A DNA stretch of 64,000 bases from an uncultured Actinomycetes bacterium (GCA_963784835.1 CAWASM010000007.1:14694-78693); one strand, 5' to 3'; shown: positions 9,351-49,904, counted from the stretch's first letter. Numbers and translations are program-made. Notes: generated from the sequence alone by a model not told the origin.

Positions 9351-9422
9351 GCCGGTGTAGCTCAATGGTAGAGCAGCTGATTTGTAATCAGCAGGTTAGG
9401 GGTTCAAGTCCCTCCACCGGCT
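9351..9422 (+). tRNA. tRNA-Thr (anticodon UGU)
   Basis: Manual cloverleaf: acceptor GCCGGTG/CACCGGC, D arm GCTC-AATGGTA-GAGC, anticodon arm GCTGA-TTTGTAA-TCAGC, T arm with TTCAAGT loop. The T stem has one mismatched pair and there is no encoded CCA. Confidence 0.85.
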
Positions 9423-9624
9423 CCTAAGGGTTGACACAAACGCGCCGCATTTGGGCCTAGTGTGAAACTGCCGTGTAGTTTGGAGTCGCTCACAGGTTCG
9501 GTCCGGGGCTTACGCGGCGCTTACCCGAGGTGTGTGCGGGGCGTGGTTGAACGAGGCCCGACTGGGTACCTAGAAGCAATCGTATTCCTGACAGCGAGGG
9601 CCCGGTGGCGACGAAGCTGGCGCG

Positions 9625-12042: not shown

Positions 12043-12360
12043 ATGAACAACACATCAAAGAGGTATCCAGTTGAAGTGAGGGAGCGAGCCGTCCGCATGG
12101 TCTTCGATCACCAGGACGAGTACGACTCCCAGTGGGCGGCGATCTCCTCGGTCGCGACCAAGTTGGGGATGACGCCCGAGACCCTCCGTAATTGCGTCCG
12201 CCGAGCCGAGATCGATGAAGGCCAGAGGGCGGGTCTCACCACCAGCGAGTGTGAGCGTGTGAAGGAACTCGAAAAGGAGAACCGGGAACTCAGGCGCGCC
12301 GATGAAATCCCAAAAGCAGCGGCCGCTTTCTTCGGGGTGGAGTTCGCGGCCCTTACTTAG
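12043..12360 (+). mobile_element. IS3-family transposase OrfA (HTH) stub without OrfB
   Basis: [13 protein letters not shown]....[52 protein letters not shown] is typical IS3 OrfA. No integrase-core ORF follows. Confidence 0.7.
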
Positions 12361-12564: not shown

Positions 12565-12650
12565 CGTTTCTTGATAAGGGCAAACCTGCCGTGAGGCGGG
12601 GACGCAAAGCCATCGGACCCATTCGTTGATTATTGGGCAGCCGAGCTCCC
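12565..12650 (+). promoter_or_regulatory. c-di-GMP-I (GEMM-I) riboswitch aptamer
   Basis: AAGGGCAAACC-TGCC-GTGA-GGCG-GGGACGCAAAGCCATCGG at 12576..12617 reproduces the conserved GGCAAAC / GNRA-capped hairpin / GGACGCAAAGCC core. A second hairpin forms from TCGG-ACCCA...TGGG-CAG-CCGA. It lies about 250 nt upstream of the TasA-like gene. Confidence 0.85.
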
Positions 12651-12678
12651 GGGGAAGCGGGAGCGGGCTGCCTTTTTT
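12636..12678 (+). terminator. intrinsic terminator (expression platform of the riboswitch)
   Basis: GGCAGCC(12636-42)/GGCTGCC(12666-72) and GCTCCC(12645-50)/GGGAGC(12659-64) form the stem. A T6 run follows (12673-78). The 5' arm overlaps the 3' arm of aptamer helix P2. Confidence 0.8.
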
Positions 12679-12924
12679 GTTGTGCAGCGATTCCCGAGCT
12701 TAGGTGAATGCGCTGGGCCGAGGACAGGGGCGGGGGCGCTTCGCGAGCGAAAGTGAGGTGGTGCTTTTGGTTTGCACGTGCTGCGTTCGCGTCAACTCTG
12801 AATTTCGCGGCGCACTGCCAGGTACTTCAACGTCATGCACGCGAGCGGACCTAAGAACGCTGAGAGGTCGGACGGAGCGTCCTACGCCCAGCGAAAGCCT
12901 CTCGAAAAGGAAAGAGGAGGGATC

Positions 12925-13650
12925 GTGAAGAAACACTTCAGCAGGCGGTTCAAGGTAAAAGCCCTTGCACTCGGGGTTTCCATCATTCTCGTCGTGGTCC
13001 TCATCGCCATCGCCACCGGGGCGACCGGGGCCTACTTCAGTGACACCAAGAGCGGGACGGTCACCGGTGCCATGGGGACGATCCAGGTGAGCGCGACCGG
13101 GGGAACTGGTGGGAATAATCTCGACTTTAACTGGCCCAACATGTTGCCCGGTGTGCACTACACCACCTCGGTGACCTTCCAGAACAGCGGCAACAACCCG
13201 GAAGACGTCTATCTGAACTTCAACAACCTGACCGCGCTCAGCACGCTCAACACTAAGGGGACGTACGCGTCGGTGCACATCAAGGTCAATGGCACTCCGA
13301 CGTACGCCTATCTGAACCTGAACGACCAGAACTCGAGCGGCTTCCTGCCGCCGCGGCTCTTGCTCGTTTCTAACCTCATACCGAACGCGACCGGGACGAT
13401 GGTCTTCGACTTCGAGTACGCGTCGAAGTTGGCCACCCCGGAACCGGGAGGGGTCTTCAACCTGTATCCCATCTACGACAGCGATTCCTGGTATGAGGCG
13501 CACAGTGGCTACGCCGCGGGATACGGCCAGACCACTGCCCGTTCGGGCATCGACTTCGTAATGGGTCAGCACAACCAAGGTCTGCCGTACCAAATCCTCG
13601 CTACCCAGGTCGGCATATCCCCGGACGACACCGGTGGCTCAGCCGACTAA
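12925..13650 (+). CDS. TasA/camelysin-family secreted protein with SipW-type signal peptide
   Basis: GTG 12925 follows AGGAGG. After the TM segment comes GATGAYFSDTKSGTVTGAMGTIQVS (AYFSD motif), then a beta-rich body with LPG....TF.N.G. Confidence 0.8.
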   Translation: MKKHFSRRFKVKALALGVSIILVVVLIAIATGATGAYFSDTKSGTVTGAMGTIQVSATGGTGGNNLDFNWPNMLPGVHYTTSVTFQNSGNNPEDVYLNFNNLTALSTLNTKGTYASVHIKVNGTPTYAYLNLNDQNSSGFLPPRLLLVSNLIPNATGTMVFDFEYASKLATPEPGGVFNLYPIYDSDSWYEAHSGYAAGYGQTTARSGIDFVMGQHNQGLPYQILATQVGISPDDTGGSAD

Positions 13651-13760
13651 TCGTTGACCGGCTAGTAACCGCAGACCCGTGAACTCGGAGGAGCGCGGCG
13701 GCTTGACCGCCGCGCTCCCCAGCCTTTCTCCGCAATCTCGCTTGTCGGCCAAGGAAGATC

Positions 13761-14612
13761 GTGAAAACGTCCAGAAGACTTGCACGAACTCTACTTCGGT
13801 GGCTCCTGCCGCTGATGGCCCTGGGCGTCATCGTGTCCGGCGTTCTCTTCCTCACGGGAGTCTTCTCGTACCAGATCTACATCATCCACACCGGCTCCAT
13901 GACTCCCACCATCCCGACCCGAAGCGCGGTCATCGTGCACGAAGGGCCGGTACAAGTCGGGCAGGTCGTGACGTTCCACACCGAGGGGGGCGTGGTCGCC
14001 CACCGGCTGGTCAAGCAGCTCCCTGACGGCACCTACCAGACCAAAGGCGACGCCAACGAGACTGTCGATGTCGGCACGATCGGAGCTTCCCAGATCATCG
14101 GGCCGGTGGTCGCTGCTCCGCGCAACCTCGGCTATTGGCTCGCTTACTTCAAGAGCCAAATAGGTCTCGGCTCACTGGCACTTGGGATTCTCTGTCTCTG
14201 GCTAATGTACTCGGTGCTGGTGGAGTTTGGCGCAGCTGGGGCCGCACGTCGCAGGAGTTGGACGAGACGACCCGGGACGAGAGTTGGAGCTGTGTTGGTG
14301 ATGGCTGGCCTGGCAGTTGTTCTCTTTGCCGGGACCGCCCAGGCCGACTTCGAGGCCCGGGTATCTGGGACGATGCGGGGAACCCTCGACCCATCCTTCG
14401 CCACATCAGACTCCACGACCACCACCGTACTTGATCCTACCGACGTCCCCGAGACGAGCAGCAGCACGACAGCCGGACCGACGACCTCGACCAGCGAGAC
14501 CACCAGCACCGAGCCGACGGAGCTCCCAGCAACCGAGCCCCCGACCACCGCGGCAACGGCTGGGCTGGACACGACGGCAACTGGGACCACGACGACCGAA
14601 GGCTACCAGTGA
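13761..14612 (+). CDS. SipW-type signal peptidase I (S26B) with long C-terminal extension
   Basis: The peptidase core is IIHTGSMTPTIPTRSAVIV....VGQVVTF......AHRLV.....TYQTKGDANETVD. It has a C-terminal TM, followed by a signal-peptide-like segment and a Thr/Ser/Pro-rich tail. Confidence 0.8.
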   Translation: MKTSRRLARTLLRWLLPLMALGVIVSGVLFLTGVFSYQIYIIHTGSMTPTIPTRSAVIVHEGPVQVGQVVTFHTEGGVVAHRLVKQLPDGTYQTKGDANETVDVGTIGASQIIGPVVAAPRNLGYWLAYFKSQIGLGSLALGILCLWLMYSVLVEFGAAGAARRRSWTRRPGTRVGAVLVMAGLAVVLFAGTAQADFEARVSGTMRGTLDPSFATSDSTTTTVLDPTDVPETSSSTTAGPTTSTSETTSTEPTELPATEPPTTAATAGLDTTATGTTTTEGYQ

Positions 14613-14723
14613 TCTAGTGGCTGACCGAGTAGCACAGGCGCTTGGACGTACGTCCGCGCGGCGGGTTGGCTGCCGGGCCCTCCAGTGCTGCCACACAGCC
14701 TCGTCGGTGCTCGGAGTAAGACC

Positions 14724-15548
14724 GTGACGGCCTCAAGGAAGATAGGCCGGGTTGTGATGCATTGGCTTCTGCCGCTCATGGCCCTGGGCATCGTGGTCTC
14801 GGCCGCTCTGTTCGTCACGGGCGTCTTCTCGTACAAGATCTACATCATCCACACGGGCTCCATGACTCCCACCATCCCGACCCGAAGCGCGGTCATCGTG
14901 CACGAAGGGCCGGTACAAGTCGGGCAGGTCGTGACGTTCCACACCCAAGCGGGCGTGGTCACCCACCGGGTGGTCGAGCAGCGACCTGACGGGACCTACA
15001 TCACCAAGGGCGACGCCAACGAGACCGTCGATGTCGGTAGCATTCGCGCTTCACAGATCGTAGGGCCGGTAGTGGCCGCACCGCGCAGATTGGGCTACTG
15101 GATCGCCTACTTCAAGAGCCCGGTCGGTCTCGCCTCGCTGATCATCGCTATCGTTGTCATCTGGCTCCTCTATTCTCTCGTATCGGAGTTCGGGGAGCGG
15201 CGCGCACCGTCCGACCAACCGGCATCGGGGCTCCGAGCAGCGGACGAGGCAGCCAATTCAAGAGCCAACCCCTGTGTGGTGGCAGAAGTCAACACAGGAC
15301 AGTCCATGCAAGACTATGCGCTGGACGCCGTGCCCCGCCGCTGTGCCCGCTATGCTGCCTCGAAGACCACGTCAAGGAGAGCAGCGGGAGACGCGCTGAA
15401 GTCGATGCAAGATGACGTTTGCGATGCCGTGCCCCGCCGCTGTGCCCGCTATGCTGCCTCGAAGACCGAGCTGAGCAGACGCGCCGCCAAGCCAGCCTCC
15501 AAGAGCGGGGACGGAACGACGGCCACGAGTATCCTCTTGGGCGACTGA
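14724..15548 (+). CDS. SipW-type signal peptidase I, tandem paralog
   Basis: The peptidase core is the same as the previous gene, with a 90-nt block identical at DNA level. The C-terminal tail is different and contains a 99-bp direct repeat. Confidence 0.8.
   Translation: MTASRKIGRVVMHWLLPLMALGIVVSAALFVTGVFSYKIYIIHTGSMTPTIPTRSAVIVHEGPVQVGQVVTFHTQAGVVTHRVVEQRPDGTYITKGDANETVDVGSIRASQIVGPVVAAPRRLGYWIAYFKSPVGLASLIIAIVVIWLLYSLVSEFGERRAPSDQPASGLRAADEAANSRANPCVVAEVNTGQSMQDYALDAVPRRCARYAASKTTSRRAAGDALKSMQDDVCDAVPRRCARYAASKTELSRRAAKPASKSGDGTTATSILLGD
15306..15467 (+). repeat. 99-bp-period direct repeat inside the SipW paralog 3' region
   Basis: The two units are 15306..15368 and 15405..15467. They share an identical 42-nt core (15327..15368 = 15426..15467) encoding AVPRRCARYAASKT. 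Confidence 0.9.
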
Positions 15549-15725
15549 TCTTCCGGCCCTGGCTTCAGGCTCGGTTTCCAGCTTTCGATGCCGCAGTCGC
15601 GGCGGTTCGCCTAGCCTCGGCTTAATCACCGGGTTCCCTCTGCCGATACTCTCATGAGGGGCACACGCTTTTGTCTGCATCCATGTGCCTCGTTCGGTTA
15701 CAGACAGGCGGAGAGGAGAGCCACG

Positions 15726-16301
15726 ATGACACGAGGCAAGAAGATGAGGACTCTGCTCGGCAATGTGCTCCTCGGCCTCGTGCTGGTCGCCGCCGCCCTC
15801 TTCGTTGTCAACATGGGTGTTAACGGTCTCGGCACCCTGCCGGGCGGATATCGGCCCTTGGTCGTTCTCTCTGGGAGCATGGAGCCCTACATGCCGACGG
15901 GCAGCCTCGTCTTGACCAAGAGCGTGAACCCTGCAACGGTCAAAGTCGGCGACGTCATCACCTTCCGCCTGAAGACCGGTTCCTTCCAGACCGATTTCGC
16001 CACCCATCGGGTTGAGGCGATAGAGAACGGGCCAACCGGGATGAGTTTCGTCACCAAAGGGGACGCGAACCAGGTCCACGACCTTGTCCCGGTCTCCGCC
16101 ACGGCCCTAGTGGGCAGGGTCGTTCTCATCTCCAGCTTGGCCGGAAGTGTCGTCCAGGCGGTGAAGACGCCTCTGTTCCTCGCTCTCGTCGCGTTTGGAG
16201 CAGTGGCTCTAATGACCAAAGCTCTCTGGAAAAAGGTACCTCGCCGTCTCGCCCGTGAGCGGGCGCCACTGCCCGAGCCTTCCGCCCGCGTCCCCTCTTG
16301 A
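15726..16301 (+). CDS. SipW-type signal peptidase I, third copy (divergent)
   Basis: LVVLSGSMEPYMPTGSLVL....VKVGDVITF.......ATHRV......FVTKGDANQVHD plus a C-terminal TM segment. Of the three copies it is closest to B. subtilis SipW. Confidence 0.85.
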   Translation: MTRGKKMRTLLGNVLLGLVLVAAALFVVNMGVNGLGTLPGGYRPLVVLSGSMEPYMPTGSLVLTKSVNPATVKVGDVITFRLKTGSFQTDFATHRVEAIENGPTGMSFVTKGDANQVHDLVPVSATALVGRVVLISSLAGSVVQAVKTPLFLALVAFGAVALMTKALWKKVPRRLARERAPLPEPSARVPS

Positions 16302-16329: not shown

Positions 16330-17323
16330 CGGCCCTGCTGCCAGAACCCGATCTGTTCCCATACGCCTACGTGCGCCGAGAGGCCGTGCTTTCCAGTCAG
16401 ATCGAGGGAACTCAGTCCTCGCTCTCCGACCTATTGCTCTTTGAACTTGAGGGGGCACCGGGCGCACCCTTCGACGAGGTGGTGGAGGTCTCCAACTACG
16501 TCGCGGCGCTGGAGCATGGGCTTGCTCGCCAGGCCGAAGGTCTTCCGCTGTCCAACGGGCTGATCCGGGAGATTCACGCCCGACTGCTTTCGCGGGGGCG
16601 GAGCATTGGCAAGCAGCCGGGCGAGTTCCGTACCAGCCAGAACTGTATCGGCGGCACTCGACCGGGCAATGCTCAATTTGTTCCGCCGCCCCCGCAGGAG
16701 GTGGAGCCATGCATGGCAGCGCTTGAGCGGTTCATGCATGACCCGATGCGCCGGGGGCTCTCAGCAAAGCCGCCCTTGCCCATGTGCAGTTCGAGTCCAT
16801 TCACCCCTTCGTTGACGACAACGGCCGAGTCGGCAGGCTGCTGATCGCCCTCCTTCTGCATCATGACGGGGTGCTGCGGCAGCCGCTTCTGTACCTGAGT
16901 CTCTATTTCAAACAGAACCGGGCCGAGTACTACCGACTGCTGAACTCCATGCGAGATACGGGTGACTGGGAGGCCTGGTTAGACTTCTTCCTCGAGGGAG
17001 TGCGGGAAACCGCCACAGGCGCGGTCGACACCGCCCACCGATTGCTGGCCATGTTCCAGAAGGATCAGGAACTTGTTCAGGGCTTGGGCCGCGCTGCCGC
17101 CAATACGCTTCGCGTATTCGAAGCCTTACGGCATCGTCCCGTGGGCCATATCGATCATTTGGCGGGGCAGACGGGAATAGCCTATCCCACCGCTGCACGG
17201 GCCGTCGACGCTCTTGTAGGACTCGGGGTGTTGCACGAGCTGACTGCGCGACGGCGCGGGCGCGTATTCGCCTATGACGGGTCTCTGCGGATCCTGAACG
17301 AGGGAGGATCATCGGAGGCGTAA
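16330..17323 (+). pseudogene. Fic-family protein, N-terminally truncated and frameshifted near 16790
   Basis: REAVLSSQIEGTQSS...EIHARLL...PGEFRTSQN is in ORF 16371..16844. HPFVDDNGRVGRLLIALLL... and a winged-helix C-terminus are in ORF 16784..17323. No room is left for a normal N-terminus after the SipW stop at 16301. Confidence 0.7.
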
Positions 17324-17378: not shown

Positions 17379-17422
17379 CTGATCTGTGGTCAGCAGGTTA
17401 GGGGTTCAAGTCCCGCCACCGG
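17379..17422 (+). repeat. partial copy of tRNA-Thr 3' part (anticodon arm to acceptor 3' strand)
   Basis: These 44 nt match 9377..9420 with 4 mismatches. 25 nt, TCAGCAGGTTAGGGGTTCAAGTCCC, are identical (9388..9412 = 17390..17414). No 5' half is present. Confidence 0.85.
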
Positions 17423-47678: not shown

Positions 47679-49140
47679 GTGCTGAAGATGGTCGACGTGG
47701 AGTTCATCAAGAAGAAGCATGAGATCGAGGGCTGGCCGATCCGCAAGATCGCCCGGCAGCTCGAGGTCTCCAGGCAGACGGTGCGCAGGGTGCTGGCCTC
47801 CCCGGCTGAGCCGCCCCGGTATGAGCAGAGGGTTGCTCGTTCGCAACCGGTCATGGGCCCGTATCTCCCGGTCGTCGAGCGCTGGCTCATCGACGACGAG
47901 ACCGCGCCCCGCAAACAGCGTCACACCGCCCATCGCATCTACGACCGCCTGGTGGCTGAATACGACTTCCCCGGATCCGAGGTGACCGTGCGCCGGGCGG
48001 TCCGCGCCCTTCGGGGCCGACGCGTGGAGATGTTCGTGCCCTTGGAAGCGGTGCCGGGCAAGGTGGCCCAAGCTGACTTCGGTCAGGCTCACATGCTGAT
48101 CGCCGGCTGTGTGCAGAAGGTCTTCATCTTTTGCCTGCGGGCCAAGCATTCCAAGGTGCCCTTTGCCGCTGCTTATCCCACCGAGAAGCTGGAAGCCTTT
48201 CTGGATGGTCACGTCCGGGGTCTCGAGTTCTTCGGCGGCATCTTCCGGGAGATCTGGTATGACAACCCCAAGACCGCCGTCACCAAGATCCTTTCTGGGC
48301 CGGAGAGAGTCGAGCACGAACACTTCAGCCGCCTGCGGGCCCACTACCTGTTCGATAGCTCCTTCTGCACCCCCGGAGAGGCTCACGAGAAGGGCTCGGT
48401 GGAGAACCTGGTCGGATACGTGCGCAGAAACGCTCTGGTGCCGGCGTCCAAGCCCTTCGCCAGCCTCGAGGCCCTGAACGCTCACCTACTTGCCTTCTGC
48501 GAGCGGGAACGGGTCCGCCATGCTGAGGCTTGGGCTCTGGAGGAGTCTGCTCTTGGGCCCCTGCCTACCTACCCCTTCCGGGCCGCGACCTCCCGGCCGG
48601 TCTCGGTCTCCAAGACCGCCCTGGTCCGCATCGACCACAATCGCTACTCGGTCCCGGCCGTCCAGGCCGGCCGTCTGCTGCGCGCCGAGCTCTACGCAGA
48701 CAAGGTGGAGATCTATGCCGCCGCCACGCTCGTGGCCACCCATCCCCGCAGCTACCATCGCGACGAAAGCTTCCTGGATCTTGCCCACTATCTTCCTGCC
48801 TTCCAAAGAAAGCCCCGGGCGGCCGGCTGCTGCGCCGCTCTTCATCAGGCCGACCCGGTGTTCATCCGCGCCCGGGACCGTCTGCTCGCCGAACCCGGTG
48901 GATACCGGGTCTTCGCCGAGATCCTCATGCTAGGGCTGCGCTTTGATCTGGAGGTCCTGGCTGAAGCCCTCGGAGAGTGCCTGGCCTCCGGGAGACTCTC
49001 GGTCGAGGGTGTCCGCCAGCATTGTCTCAACCTCACTCACCCGGCGCCGCAGCATGTGGAGGTGCCTGAGTTCTTGGCCCTGCGGCTTCCCCGGCCGGAT
49101 CTTAGCCCGCTACGACACCCTGACGGCGGTGGCCCGATGA
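47679..49140 (+). CDS. istA: IS21 transposase IstA (1-nt indel near 49093)
   Basis: The N-terminal HTH is MVDVEFIKKKHEIEGWPIRKIARQLEVSRQTVRR. The DDE core has QADFG...... and WYDNPKTAV. The expected end, PDLARYDTLTAVAR-TGA (49138..49140), is in the frame of ORF 48943..49140. Confidence 0.85.
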
Positions 49141-49904
49141 ACTCAGAGGTCGTCGCCGCCCAGGTCAAGCTCTTTACCCAGGAACTTAAGATGCCGGGGC
49201 TGCGCACCCATTTCGAGGAGATCGCCCGGGAGGCAAGGAGCAACGGGGAGTCCCACGAAGCCTATCTGGTCGCGTGTCTGCGGGCCGAGATCGAGTCCCG
49301 GCGGGAGCACCGGCTGCAGGATCGCCTAAAACAGGCCCGCTTCCCCCACCGAAAGACGCTCGATGAGTTCGACTTCACCCTGGTCCCCTCCGTCCCCAAG
49401 GAAGAGGTCCTTGGCCTGGCGGGAGCCGAGTTCGTCCGCGCCCGGGAGAACGTCATCCTCTTAGGAGCAAGCGGCACCGGCAAGACACACCTTGCCCAGG
49501 CCATCGGCCATGCCGCCATCTACGCCGGCGCTCGGGTCCGCTTCACGAGCGCGGTCGCGCTGGCTCAAGAACTGCTCGCCGCTCAAGACGAGCATCGGCT
49601 GCCTCGCTATCTTAGGAGCTGGCAGAAGACCGATCTGGCCATCGTCGATGAACTCGGATATCTGGGCCTGGGGCCGGGAGGCCCCTTGCTCTTTCAGTTC
49701 TTCGCCGAGCGCTACGAGAAAGGATCGGTGCTCGTGACCTCCAACCTGGAGTTCTCGCGTTGGAGCGAGGTCTTCGGAGATCCGGTGCTCACCGCGGCCC
49801 TTCTCGATCGACTGACCCACCACAGTCATATCCTGGTGTTCGAAGGGGAGTCCTACCGGTTCCGGGAGAGCCAGAAGCAGAAGACGAGATCTCAGGCGAA
49901 GTGA
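49137..49904 (+). CDS. istB: IS21 helper ATPase IstB
   Basis: ATG 49137 lies in an ATGA overlap with the istA stop. Walker A is LLGASGTGKTHLA and Walker B is LAIVDELGY; also VTSNLEFSRW. Confidence 0.9.
   Translation: MNSEVVAAQVKLFTQELKMPGLRTHFEEIAREARSNGESHEAYLVACLRAEIESRREHRLQDRLKQARFPHRKTLDEFDFTLVPSVPKEEVLGLAGAEFVRARENVILLGASGTGKTHLAQAIGHAAIYAGARVRFTSAVALAQELLAAQDEHRLPRYLRSWQKTDLAIVDELGYLGLGPGGPLLFQFFAERYEKGSVLVTSNLEFSRWSEVFGDPVLTAALLDRLTHHSHILVFEGESYRFRESQKQKTRSQAK

Follow-up and report, generated by a model that had tools for sequence, protein, structure and literature searches.

A TasA-like gene followed by three S26B signal peptidase genes on a putative tRNA-flanked island, with gene conversion between two of the peptidases

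A four-gene operon at positions 12925-16301 of a 64,000-nucleotide stretch of DNA (the window; CAWASM010000007.1:14694-78693 of assembly GCA_963784835.1) places a single gene for a TasA/camelysin-like secreted protein ahead of three genes for S26B signal peptidases, here termed sip1, sip2 and sip3. The operon is best read, with a probability of roughly three in four, as a horizontally acquired exporter of a TasA-superfamily fibre or matrix subunit that is controlled by a cyclic di-GMP (c-di-GMP) riboswitch and served by three dedicated, SipW-like peptidases. The first two peptidase genes are an old tandem duplication of the peptidase that is cognate to the tasA-like family, in which the last transmembrane helix and the tails have diverged while the catalytic cores have been repeatedly homogenised by gene conversion. 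Gene conversion as such is an ordinary process, and the operon as a whole is an uncommon form, with three peptidases, of the familiar TasA/SipW system.

The four genes and their families

The window forms part of a metagenome-assembled genome of 2.33 Mb that is 58% complete and has a G+C content of ~62%, the host being an uncultured high-GC bacterium of soil or peat. Four open reading frames (ORFs) follow each other on the plus strand, comprising the tasA-like gene (12925..13650, 241 residues), sip1 (13761..14612), sip2 (14724..15548) and sip3 (15726..16301, 191 residues), and their matches to family models bear out the sequence-only reading of this DNA, which had described one TasA-like gene followed by three S26B peptidase genes. 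The longest ORF of sip2 begins at 14685, and its start is placed at the GTG at 14724, which has GGAG upstream and agrees with the start of the orthologues. The tasA-like gene likewise opens with GTG and is preceded by a strong Shine-Dalgarno sequence, GAAAGAGGAGG.

The tentative assignment of the first gene product to the TasA superfamily draws on its family match, the closest structural match of its model and its cleavage site. Residues 46-152 of the long ORF match the camelysin/TasA family PF12389 with 24.6 bits against a gathering cut-off of 22.5. The best match of its AlphaFold2 (AF2) model in the Protein Data Bank (PDB) is the TasA fibre 8AUR, with an E-value of 4e-4 and a probability of 1.0. 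The protein carries the motif TGAYFSD, the signal peptide ending in ATGATG immediately before AYFSD and thus presenting an aromatic residue at P2', and AYFS is invariant across the alignment of the tasA-like family. An aromatic P2' residue is the reason why TasA needs a dedicated peptidase, as it makes a poor substrate for ordinary type I peptidases (PMC10269814), and TasA subunits are known to assemble by donor strand (PMC9674648, PMC10151520). The TasA equivalog model NF046066 gives 17.6-18 bits against a cut-off of 450. Compared with its orthologue at locus L024, which represents a sibling species described below, the tasA-like gene shows a ratio of non-synonymous to synonymous substitution rates (dN/dS) of 0.30.

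The three peptidases belong to the endoplasmic reticulum/archaeal type of signal peptidase I (S26B), represented by model TIGR02228 with a curated cut-off of 51.85 bits. The highest score is that of sip3, a short canonical enzyme with the motif GSMEP (91.0 bits), followed by sip2 (61.4-63.1 bits) and sip1 (51.1 bits). The Bacillus SipW equivalog NF046067 returns 49, 57.5 and 64 bits for the three proteins against a cut-off of 190; they are relatives of SipW, not orthologues. The third copy leads on both the SipW and the archaeal-type model, in agreement with the earlier view that it is the most SipW-like. All three proteins align to human SEC11A/C through the catalytic motifs GSM(T/E)P, (A/T)HR and KGDAN..D, in which Ser46, His81 and Asp103 are invariant across an alignment of 53 related peptidases; the roles of these residues were taken from S47, H87 and D106 of SipW, which uses a Ser-His rather than a Ser-Lys arrangement (PMC8767453). 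Because the Ser/His/Asp motifs are present in all three copies and invariant in the 53 homologues, the case in which a single copy alone would be catalytically intact does not apply. The AF2 model of sip1 has a predicted local distance difference test score (pLDDT) above 90 over residues 10-160, with helices at 3-31 and 133-165, and its top structural matches in Foldseek are SEC11C and SEC11A. Between the window and L024 the dN/dS values are 0.31 for the sip1 domain, 0.24 for the sip2 domain and 0.16 for sip3, and all three peptidases are therefore maintained by purifying selection, the tails evolving faster than the domains (0.6-0.8). The three enzymes probably share their cleavage chemistry and differ in the roles of their tails.

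The origin of sip3 is different from that of its neighbours. A tree built from 53 peptidase domains unites sip1 and sip2 in one clade with 99% support, nested within the peptidases that accompany the tasA-like family. In the same tree sip3 and its L024 orthologue stand outside these cognate peptidases on a branch of length 2.9. The description of the genes as three tandem copies therefore fails for sip3, which is not a duplicate. It is a distant S26B lineage that was separately recruited; homologues at 64% identity stand in unrelated neighbourhoods, and orthologues are present in L024 and in a third lineage (L082).

The three-peptidase arrangement is rare. Almost always a single S26B gene follows the tasA-like gene, as seen in 51 loci of species-representative genomes and 23 metagenome loci, which together cover Thermoleophilia, Acidimicrobiia, Microbacteriaceae, Intrasporangiaceae, Saccharibacteria and other taxa. 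Among 401 genomes of the phylum, 132 contain TIGR02228 matches, mostly one each, and adjacent pairs occur in a handful; three in tandem appear only in the genome of the window among the matches listed. Paired peptidases around TasA-like genes are also seen in the same taxonomic family (genome G019). Another multi-peptidase fibre locus linked to c-di-GMP lies at L105:5333-9281, within a contig of 3.56 Mb, where a GGDEF gene precedes the gene of a sip3-like peptidase (49% identity), followed in turn by those of a TasA-like protein and of a 455-residue protein with a second S26B domain at its start.

Several observations weigh against reading the operon as a TasA-type exporter with three dedicated peptidases. 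The PF12389 match exceeds its threshold by just 2 bits, and the structural match to the TasA fibre has a template-modelling score (TM-score) of only 0.37 on a model with a pLDDT of 72, which makes a jelly-roll fold as in TasA possible rather than certain. Similarly, TIGR04088, which describes SipW-dependent signal peptides, gives 11.3-15 bits on the AYFSD-bearing protein and so stays below its cut-off of 19, and sip1 falls 0.7 bit short of the TIGR02228 cut-off. Finally, there are three peptidases, yet one AYFSD-type substrate was found in this 58%-complete genome; a regular-expression scan of all six frames recovered the known gene only. One other weak TIGR04088 match in the genome proved to be a papain-like protease with an ordinary signal peptide, not a SipW-type substrate.

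sip1 and sip2 are an old pair homogenised by gene conversion

About 60 relatives of the tasA-like protein are retrievable. The closest, at 59% amino-acid identity, stand on L023, L024, L080 and L081, which come from four different assemblies of one species, are 99.6-99.7% identical to one another and share ~80% of their nucleotides with the window. All four display the same gene order, including the long sip1, the basic-tailed sip2 and sip3. A third lineage is represented by two pieces, L082 with the tail end of sip1 followed by sip2 and sip3, and L095 with the tasA gene and the start of sip1. Over the 3' half of the peptidase domain and the tails, the identity of each copy is ~0.8 to its orthologue and 0.35-0.6 to its neighbour. 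Codons 96-160 place the sip1 orthologues in one clade with a support of 100/99, and a tree joining the two window copies is rejected by the approximately unbiased (AU) test (p-AU 2.6e-5).

These relatives decide against a recent tandem duplication, proposed in the sequence-only reading, by which the identical 90 nucleotides of the two genes would be sequence that has not yet diverged. Such an event would account for the homology of 88% that sip1 and sip2 share over 300 nt in a fixed register of 963 nt, dropping to background past ~14190, and for the weak homology that reaches into the upstream hairpin region. It is nevertheless extremely improbable, since at least three lineages, ~20% apart in nucleotides, already possess the pair and its distinct tails, which must be older than their separation, and since a clade by genome is rejected at codons 96-160. 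Outside the exchanged tract the paralogues are 45-78% identical as against ~80% for the orthologues. A recent duplication is excluded, and conversion of an old pair supported, because relatives share the gene order and the segment trees conflict with each other.

That the tandem copies or the identical block could be an artefact of assembly, either an expanded repeat or a chimeric join, deserves consideration in a metagenome-assembled genome of this completeness. This explanation is only marginally less remote than a recent duplication, as the sibling species shows these four genes, with unchanged ORF sizes, in four independent assemblies. The converted patch is bordered on either side by sip2-type sequence and its identity is graded at the 5' edge, which is not the pattern of an assembler jump. 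Every reading frame is moreover intact and shows purifying selection.

The identity at the heart of the exchange was confirmed by direct comparison: 13893-13982 in sip1 equals 14856-14945 in sip2, letter for letter over 90 nt starting at the GSMTP codons. Over the codons of this block the orthologues differ at ~10% of positions. In a sliding comparison the identity of window sip1 with window sip2 reaches 0.93-1.00 at codons 31-70, where orthologues show 0.77-0.90. In a codon alignment of four genes with 169 polymorphic sites, the longest concordant run between window sip1 and window sip2 comprises 19 sites, a length attained in 0 of 10,000 permutations (p <= 1e-4). The segment trees point in the same direction, the sip1-orthology clade being rejected at codons 21-65 (p-AU 0.002). 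The extent of the exchange was mapped with sites at which the L024 sip1 differs from both sip2 orthologues, and by these window sip2 is sip2-type up to codon 23, sip1-type from 14793 to 14943 and sip2-type again from 14946. The 90-nt identity thus lies within a gene-conversion tract of ~150 nt and sip1 type in sip2 (14793..14943, plus strand), to which corresponds a stretch of sip1 at 13830..13980 on the same strand, delimited by the site map and the identity profile. Gene conversion between copies 1 and 2, which had been put forward from the identical block, is in this way supported by the permutation test together with the conflict between segments, in which both AU tests reject the opposing topology.

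A second mosaic is found in the third lineage and runs in the opposite direction. The sip1 of L095 is sip1-like in its first 20 codons, groups with sip2 at codons 21-65 and is identical to the sip2 of L082 over codons 41-65. The two contigs were obtained from sibling samples and are assumed to belong to the same organism, an assumption on which the mosaic of L095 does not depend. Because the L095 contig ends inside the tract, an assembly effect is possible for this mosaic.

The history of the tract in the window is not fully described by a single transfer, and this adds to the points on the opposing side. Eight informative sites at codons 24-44 are swapped, window sip1 being sip2-type and window sip2 sip1-type. 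They therefore indicate a history beyond one unidirectional conversion, which may have been partly reciprocal, have involved more than one event or have drawn on a foreign allele; recombination with such an allele could be part of the tract's history. Taken as the whole explanation, homologous recombination with different sip alleles of a related strain, instead of exchange within the genome, is unlikely, although less so than the two alternatives above. The swapped sites speak for it, window sip2 is 93-95% identical to L024 sip1 over codons 21-50 where window sip1 is 82-88% identical, and the operon sits on a putative mobile island. However, an import into one copy does not by itself account for the 90-nt identity within a single genome, and a second lineage with a like mosaic at a like place is expected from recurrent ectopic exchange between paralogues. 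Repeated gene conversion within the genome is hence retained as the reading of the sip1 and sip2 cores.

Peptidase tails and the TapA question

Beyond the last transmembrane helix, sip2 continues with a basic tail of ~110 residues that should be cytosolic. A motif in this tail, VPRRxARYAAxKT, is conserved in three lineages. It occurs twice in the window by an in-frame duplication of 99 nt (15301-15368 and 15400-15467) that is lineage-specific, the sip2 of L024 and L082 containing a single unit. A regulatory role is known for the cytosolic C-terminus of the Bacillus SipW (PMC8767453).

The layout of sip1 is unusual. The peptidase domain and two transmembrane helices (residues 1-165) are followed by a basic loop, RRRSWTRRPGTR, and by a third hydrophobic helix at residues 175-191, which ends in AQA195 directly before DFEARVSGTMRGTL and gives way to a tail of ~85 residues rich in Thr, Ser and Pro. 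Past the third helix the sequence after AQA reads DFEARVSGTMRGTLDPSF. In the AF2 model a helix is formed at 176-192 and the tail is disordered. The same fusion is present in L024, and the tail end of sip1 in L082. Among 85 peptidases examined, a helix and tail segment of this type is confined to this clade.

A different arrangement is displayed by six sister loci (L026, L028, L063, L071, L083 and L085), which contain one peptidase of the sister clade and a separate gene, g2, between the tasA gene and the peptidase. The g2 proteins carry NAYF[ST]D.(.)SGTM.GTL in their N-terminal part and end in a Pro/Thr/Ser tail. In the peptidases of these loci (L026:7935-8870, L028:3442-4323, L063 and L085) a long cytosolic tail bears a C2H2 zinc-finger-like motif, F.CS.C...F.S..ELR.H, which scores 18-21 bits on Pfam zf-C2H2, below the cut-off; window sip2 may have kept a degenerate form of it in the motif AVPRRCARYAASKT. 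From their common position and motif it would seem that the sip1 tail derives from g2 or replaces it. The statement that no TapA-like anchor is evident accordingly holds in part, as there is no separate gene for one, but the position of g2 is occupied by the signal-like segment and Thr/Ser/Pro tail of sip1, a candidate analogue.

Taken further, sip1 could be a fusion of peptidase and substrate. A cut behind AQA195, whether in cis or through sip2 or sip3, would free or expose an initiator or anchor of TapA type, in which a short N-terminal strand resembling that of TasA (DFEARVSGTMRGTL) is joined to a mucin-like tail of Thr, Ser and Pro. This proposal is tentative and its truth would be somewhat surprising. 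The segment has the elements of a signal sequence, namely a basic loop, a hydrophobic helix of 17-20 residues, A-x-A and an aromatic F at P2' as in TasA (PMC10269814). The window and L024 share the conserved sequence FAGTAQA[DS]FE[AV]RVSGTM[RQ]GTLDPSFATS, three lineages retain the fusion, and the sister loci hold their separate g2 at the same position. A short donor strand is also a plausible initiator by comparison with TapA, whose mature form needs just residues 44-57 for its function (PMC10151520; bioRxiv 10.1101/794164). On the other side, a profile of the g2 N-terminus scores the L024 sip1 with 7.7 bits (E 6) and the window copy not at all, TIGR04088 has no match on the tail, the AF2 model does not dock the AQA site into the active site, and the segment has a dN/dS of 0.6-0.7. 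The helix could also be no more than a third membrane anchor of an uncleaved extracellular stalk.

The database searches set the frame for this proposal. Profiles of g2, full-length or limited to the first ~54 columns, were run against the 27,037 ORFs of the genome and against L024, and only TasA-like proteins were significant; the L024 sip1 ranked 11th and window sip1 was not listed. Neither the sip1 tail nor the g2 proteins have a Pfam or NCBIfam match to TapA. Since a TapA match is lacking and the g2 profile misses the sip1 tail, functional analogy alone remains. Among NCBIfam models nothing relevant was found on the tails, Pfam gave no match on the tails of the window, and a large-database search with sip1 residues 163-222 returned the query alone.

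If it were true, the fusion would account for the lack of a TapA-like gene and perhaps for the additional peptidases as well. In an extended version, slightly more doubtful still, sip1 would unite a peptidase and a minimal initiator or anchor of the fibre in a single polypeptide, with its third helix as a SipW-type signal peptide. The TasA-like donor strand exposed by the cut, with the mucin-like tail attached, would prime, cap or tether the fibre where the subunits mature; sip3 would have been recruited for an altered site, and conversion would keep the sip1 and sip2 cores matched to a shared substrate.

Leader, putative genomic island and relation to known systems

The operon leader contains a c-di-GMP-I riboswitch aptamer (12569..12653, plus strand), which matches RF01051 with 55.5 bits against a gathering threshold of 35 and covers model positions 1-87. 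A terminator hairpin followed by six U residues lies at 12635..12679 on the same strand (folding free energy, dG, -32.5 kcal/mol; z-score -3.4) and is the likely expression platform, because its left arm shares nucleotides with the 3' end of the aptamer. A riboswitch of this class also precedes the orthologous operon of L024. In two metagenome-assembled genomes of Acidimicrobiia, a c-di-GMP-II-GAG riboswitch (52-53 bits) stands directly upstream of tasA-like genes (L043:5880-5967 and L048:5875-5959), and a different riboswitch class is therefore found before the same gene family. A second structured element, a GC hairpin of 12 bp, occupies the gap between the tasA-like gene and sip1 (13690..13718, plus strand; dG -31.6 kcal/mol, z-score -4.5). 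Hairpins after the tasA stop codon occur in three lineages with different stem sequences (L024 at ~1642-1666 and L095 at ~1479-1504). This element may be an intra-operon attenuator or a stabiliser of the mRNA, by which subunit would be made in large excess over peptidase.

These elements suggest a course of expression and assembly. Binding of c-di-GMP to the leader aptamer would block formation of the overlapping terminator, and the tasA-like gene would then be strongly transcribed, the conserved hairpin behind it probably cutting read-through into the peptidase genes. The pre-protein would be exported by Sec and cleaved between ATG and AYFSD at the site with the aromatic P2' residue, and the N-terminal strand of the mature protein would link the subunits via donor-strand exchange.

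The operon is located on an 8-kb stretch, a putative genomic island, between tRNA-Thr(TGT) and a copy of its 3' part. The tRNA gene at 9351..9424 (plus strand; ARAGORN, Rfam 69 bits) forms the left border, its 3' 44 nt (9377-9420) being repeated at 17379..17422 on the plus strand (40 of 44 positions) as the right border. Between the two repeats the mobile-type content consists of the stub of an IS3-family orfA, a mobile-element remnant (12043..12360, plus strand; PF01527 39 bits, NF033516 partial), and a Fic/DOC adenylyltransferase-like gene at 16371..17323 on the plus strand, with no integrase gene among the ORFs. The Fic/DOC gene is frameshifted into two overlapping ORFs, Fic_N and Fic in one and the C-terminal part of Fic with a helix-turn-helix in the next, and is a probable pseudogene, decayed cargo next to the right border. 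Fifteen congeneric genomes yielded no tasA-like gene and no peptidase of TIGR02228 grade. Two genomes of this genus show a partial second tRNA-Thr 3' end ~9-10 kb from the tRNA (G004:C4:418425-428372 and G008:C97:24189-32962), so that this tRNA-Thr seems to have served repeatedly for integration, each time of other cargo.

Relatives of the operon inhabit peat, because low-depth fragments that are 85-95% identical to the tasA-like gene (12979-13640) and to the sip genes occur in peat and soil metagenomes (runs X1-X4). With the whole window as query no sequencing run was matched, and with the tasA-like gene five peat or soil metagenomes contain 4-8% of its words; four of them yielded short pieces of relatives at low depth. 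Elsewhere in the window, a 741-residue ORF at 47679-49904 clusters at 90% identity with 63 other proteins from many contigs, which have ~256 residues and are annotated 'DNA replication protein DnaC' (IstB-like); this suggests an IS21-type element or an ORF called too long.

To our knowledge, work on TasA-type fibres and on the SipW peptidases that serve them has been limited almost entirely to Bacillus. The tasA-like family is widespread in Actinomycetota and Saccharibacteria, and the two c-di-GMP riboswitch classes on some of its members tie it directly to the second messenger of biofilms. The operon described here offers a natural experiment in which recombination keeps the catalytic cores alike and the tails diverge, the pattern expected if the task of S26B peptidases in fibre operons goes beyond signal-peptide cleavage, which has been reported of the C-terminus of SipW and of streptococcal SipA. 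A compact cassette of four genes is well suited to questions of substrate specificity, of tail function and, most interestingly, of a possible fusion of peptidase and initiator, by which sip1 would carry its own substrate.

The closest well-described system is the tapA-sipW-tasA operon of B. subtilis, in which the gene for a secreted subunit of the TasA/camelysin superfamily also lies beside that of a dedicated S26B peptidase with a Ser-His-Asp arrangement (PMC8767453). The two systems share the aromatic P2' residue at the cleavage site (PMC10269814) and a cytosolic C-terminal tail on the peptidase. In contrast, the window holds three peptidase genes instead of one and no separate gene for TapA, its control would be by a c-di-GMP riboswitch and not by SinR, AbrB and RemA, and the operon resides on a putative tRNA-flanked island of a high-GC host; the proteins are not orthologues. 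The absence of TapA is shared with the B. cereus operon sipW-calY1(tasA)-bc_1280-calY2, where an accessory component other than TapA aids assembly (PMC10151520, bioRxiv 10.1101/2024.02.27.582368). B. cereus combines two camelysins with one peptidase, whereas here it is the peptidase that is multiplied and the subunit that is single.

Further relatives are the single-peptidase cassettes of Actinomycetota (Microbacteriaceae, Acidimicrobiia and Thermoleophilia) and of Saccharibacteria, which have in common with the window the tasA-like family (TGAYFSD ... GLPYQIVATQVG) and the clade of cognate GSMTP-type peptidases, some of them likewise behind c-di-GMP riboswitches. They differ from the window operon in having one peptidase, to which the sister group adds g2 and the zinc-finger-like cytosolic tail. 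Finally, SipA/LepA of S. pyogenes (PDB 4N31), the second-best structural match of the sip1 model, is also an extra protein of signal-peptidase fold in a fibre operon. SipA is a peptidase homologue essential for pilus polymerisation, whereas all three peptidases of the operon described here keep their catalytic residues.

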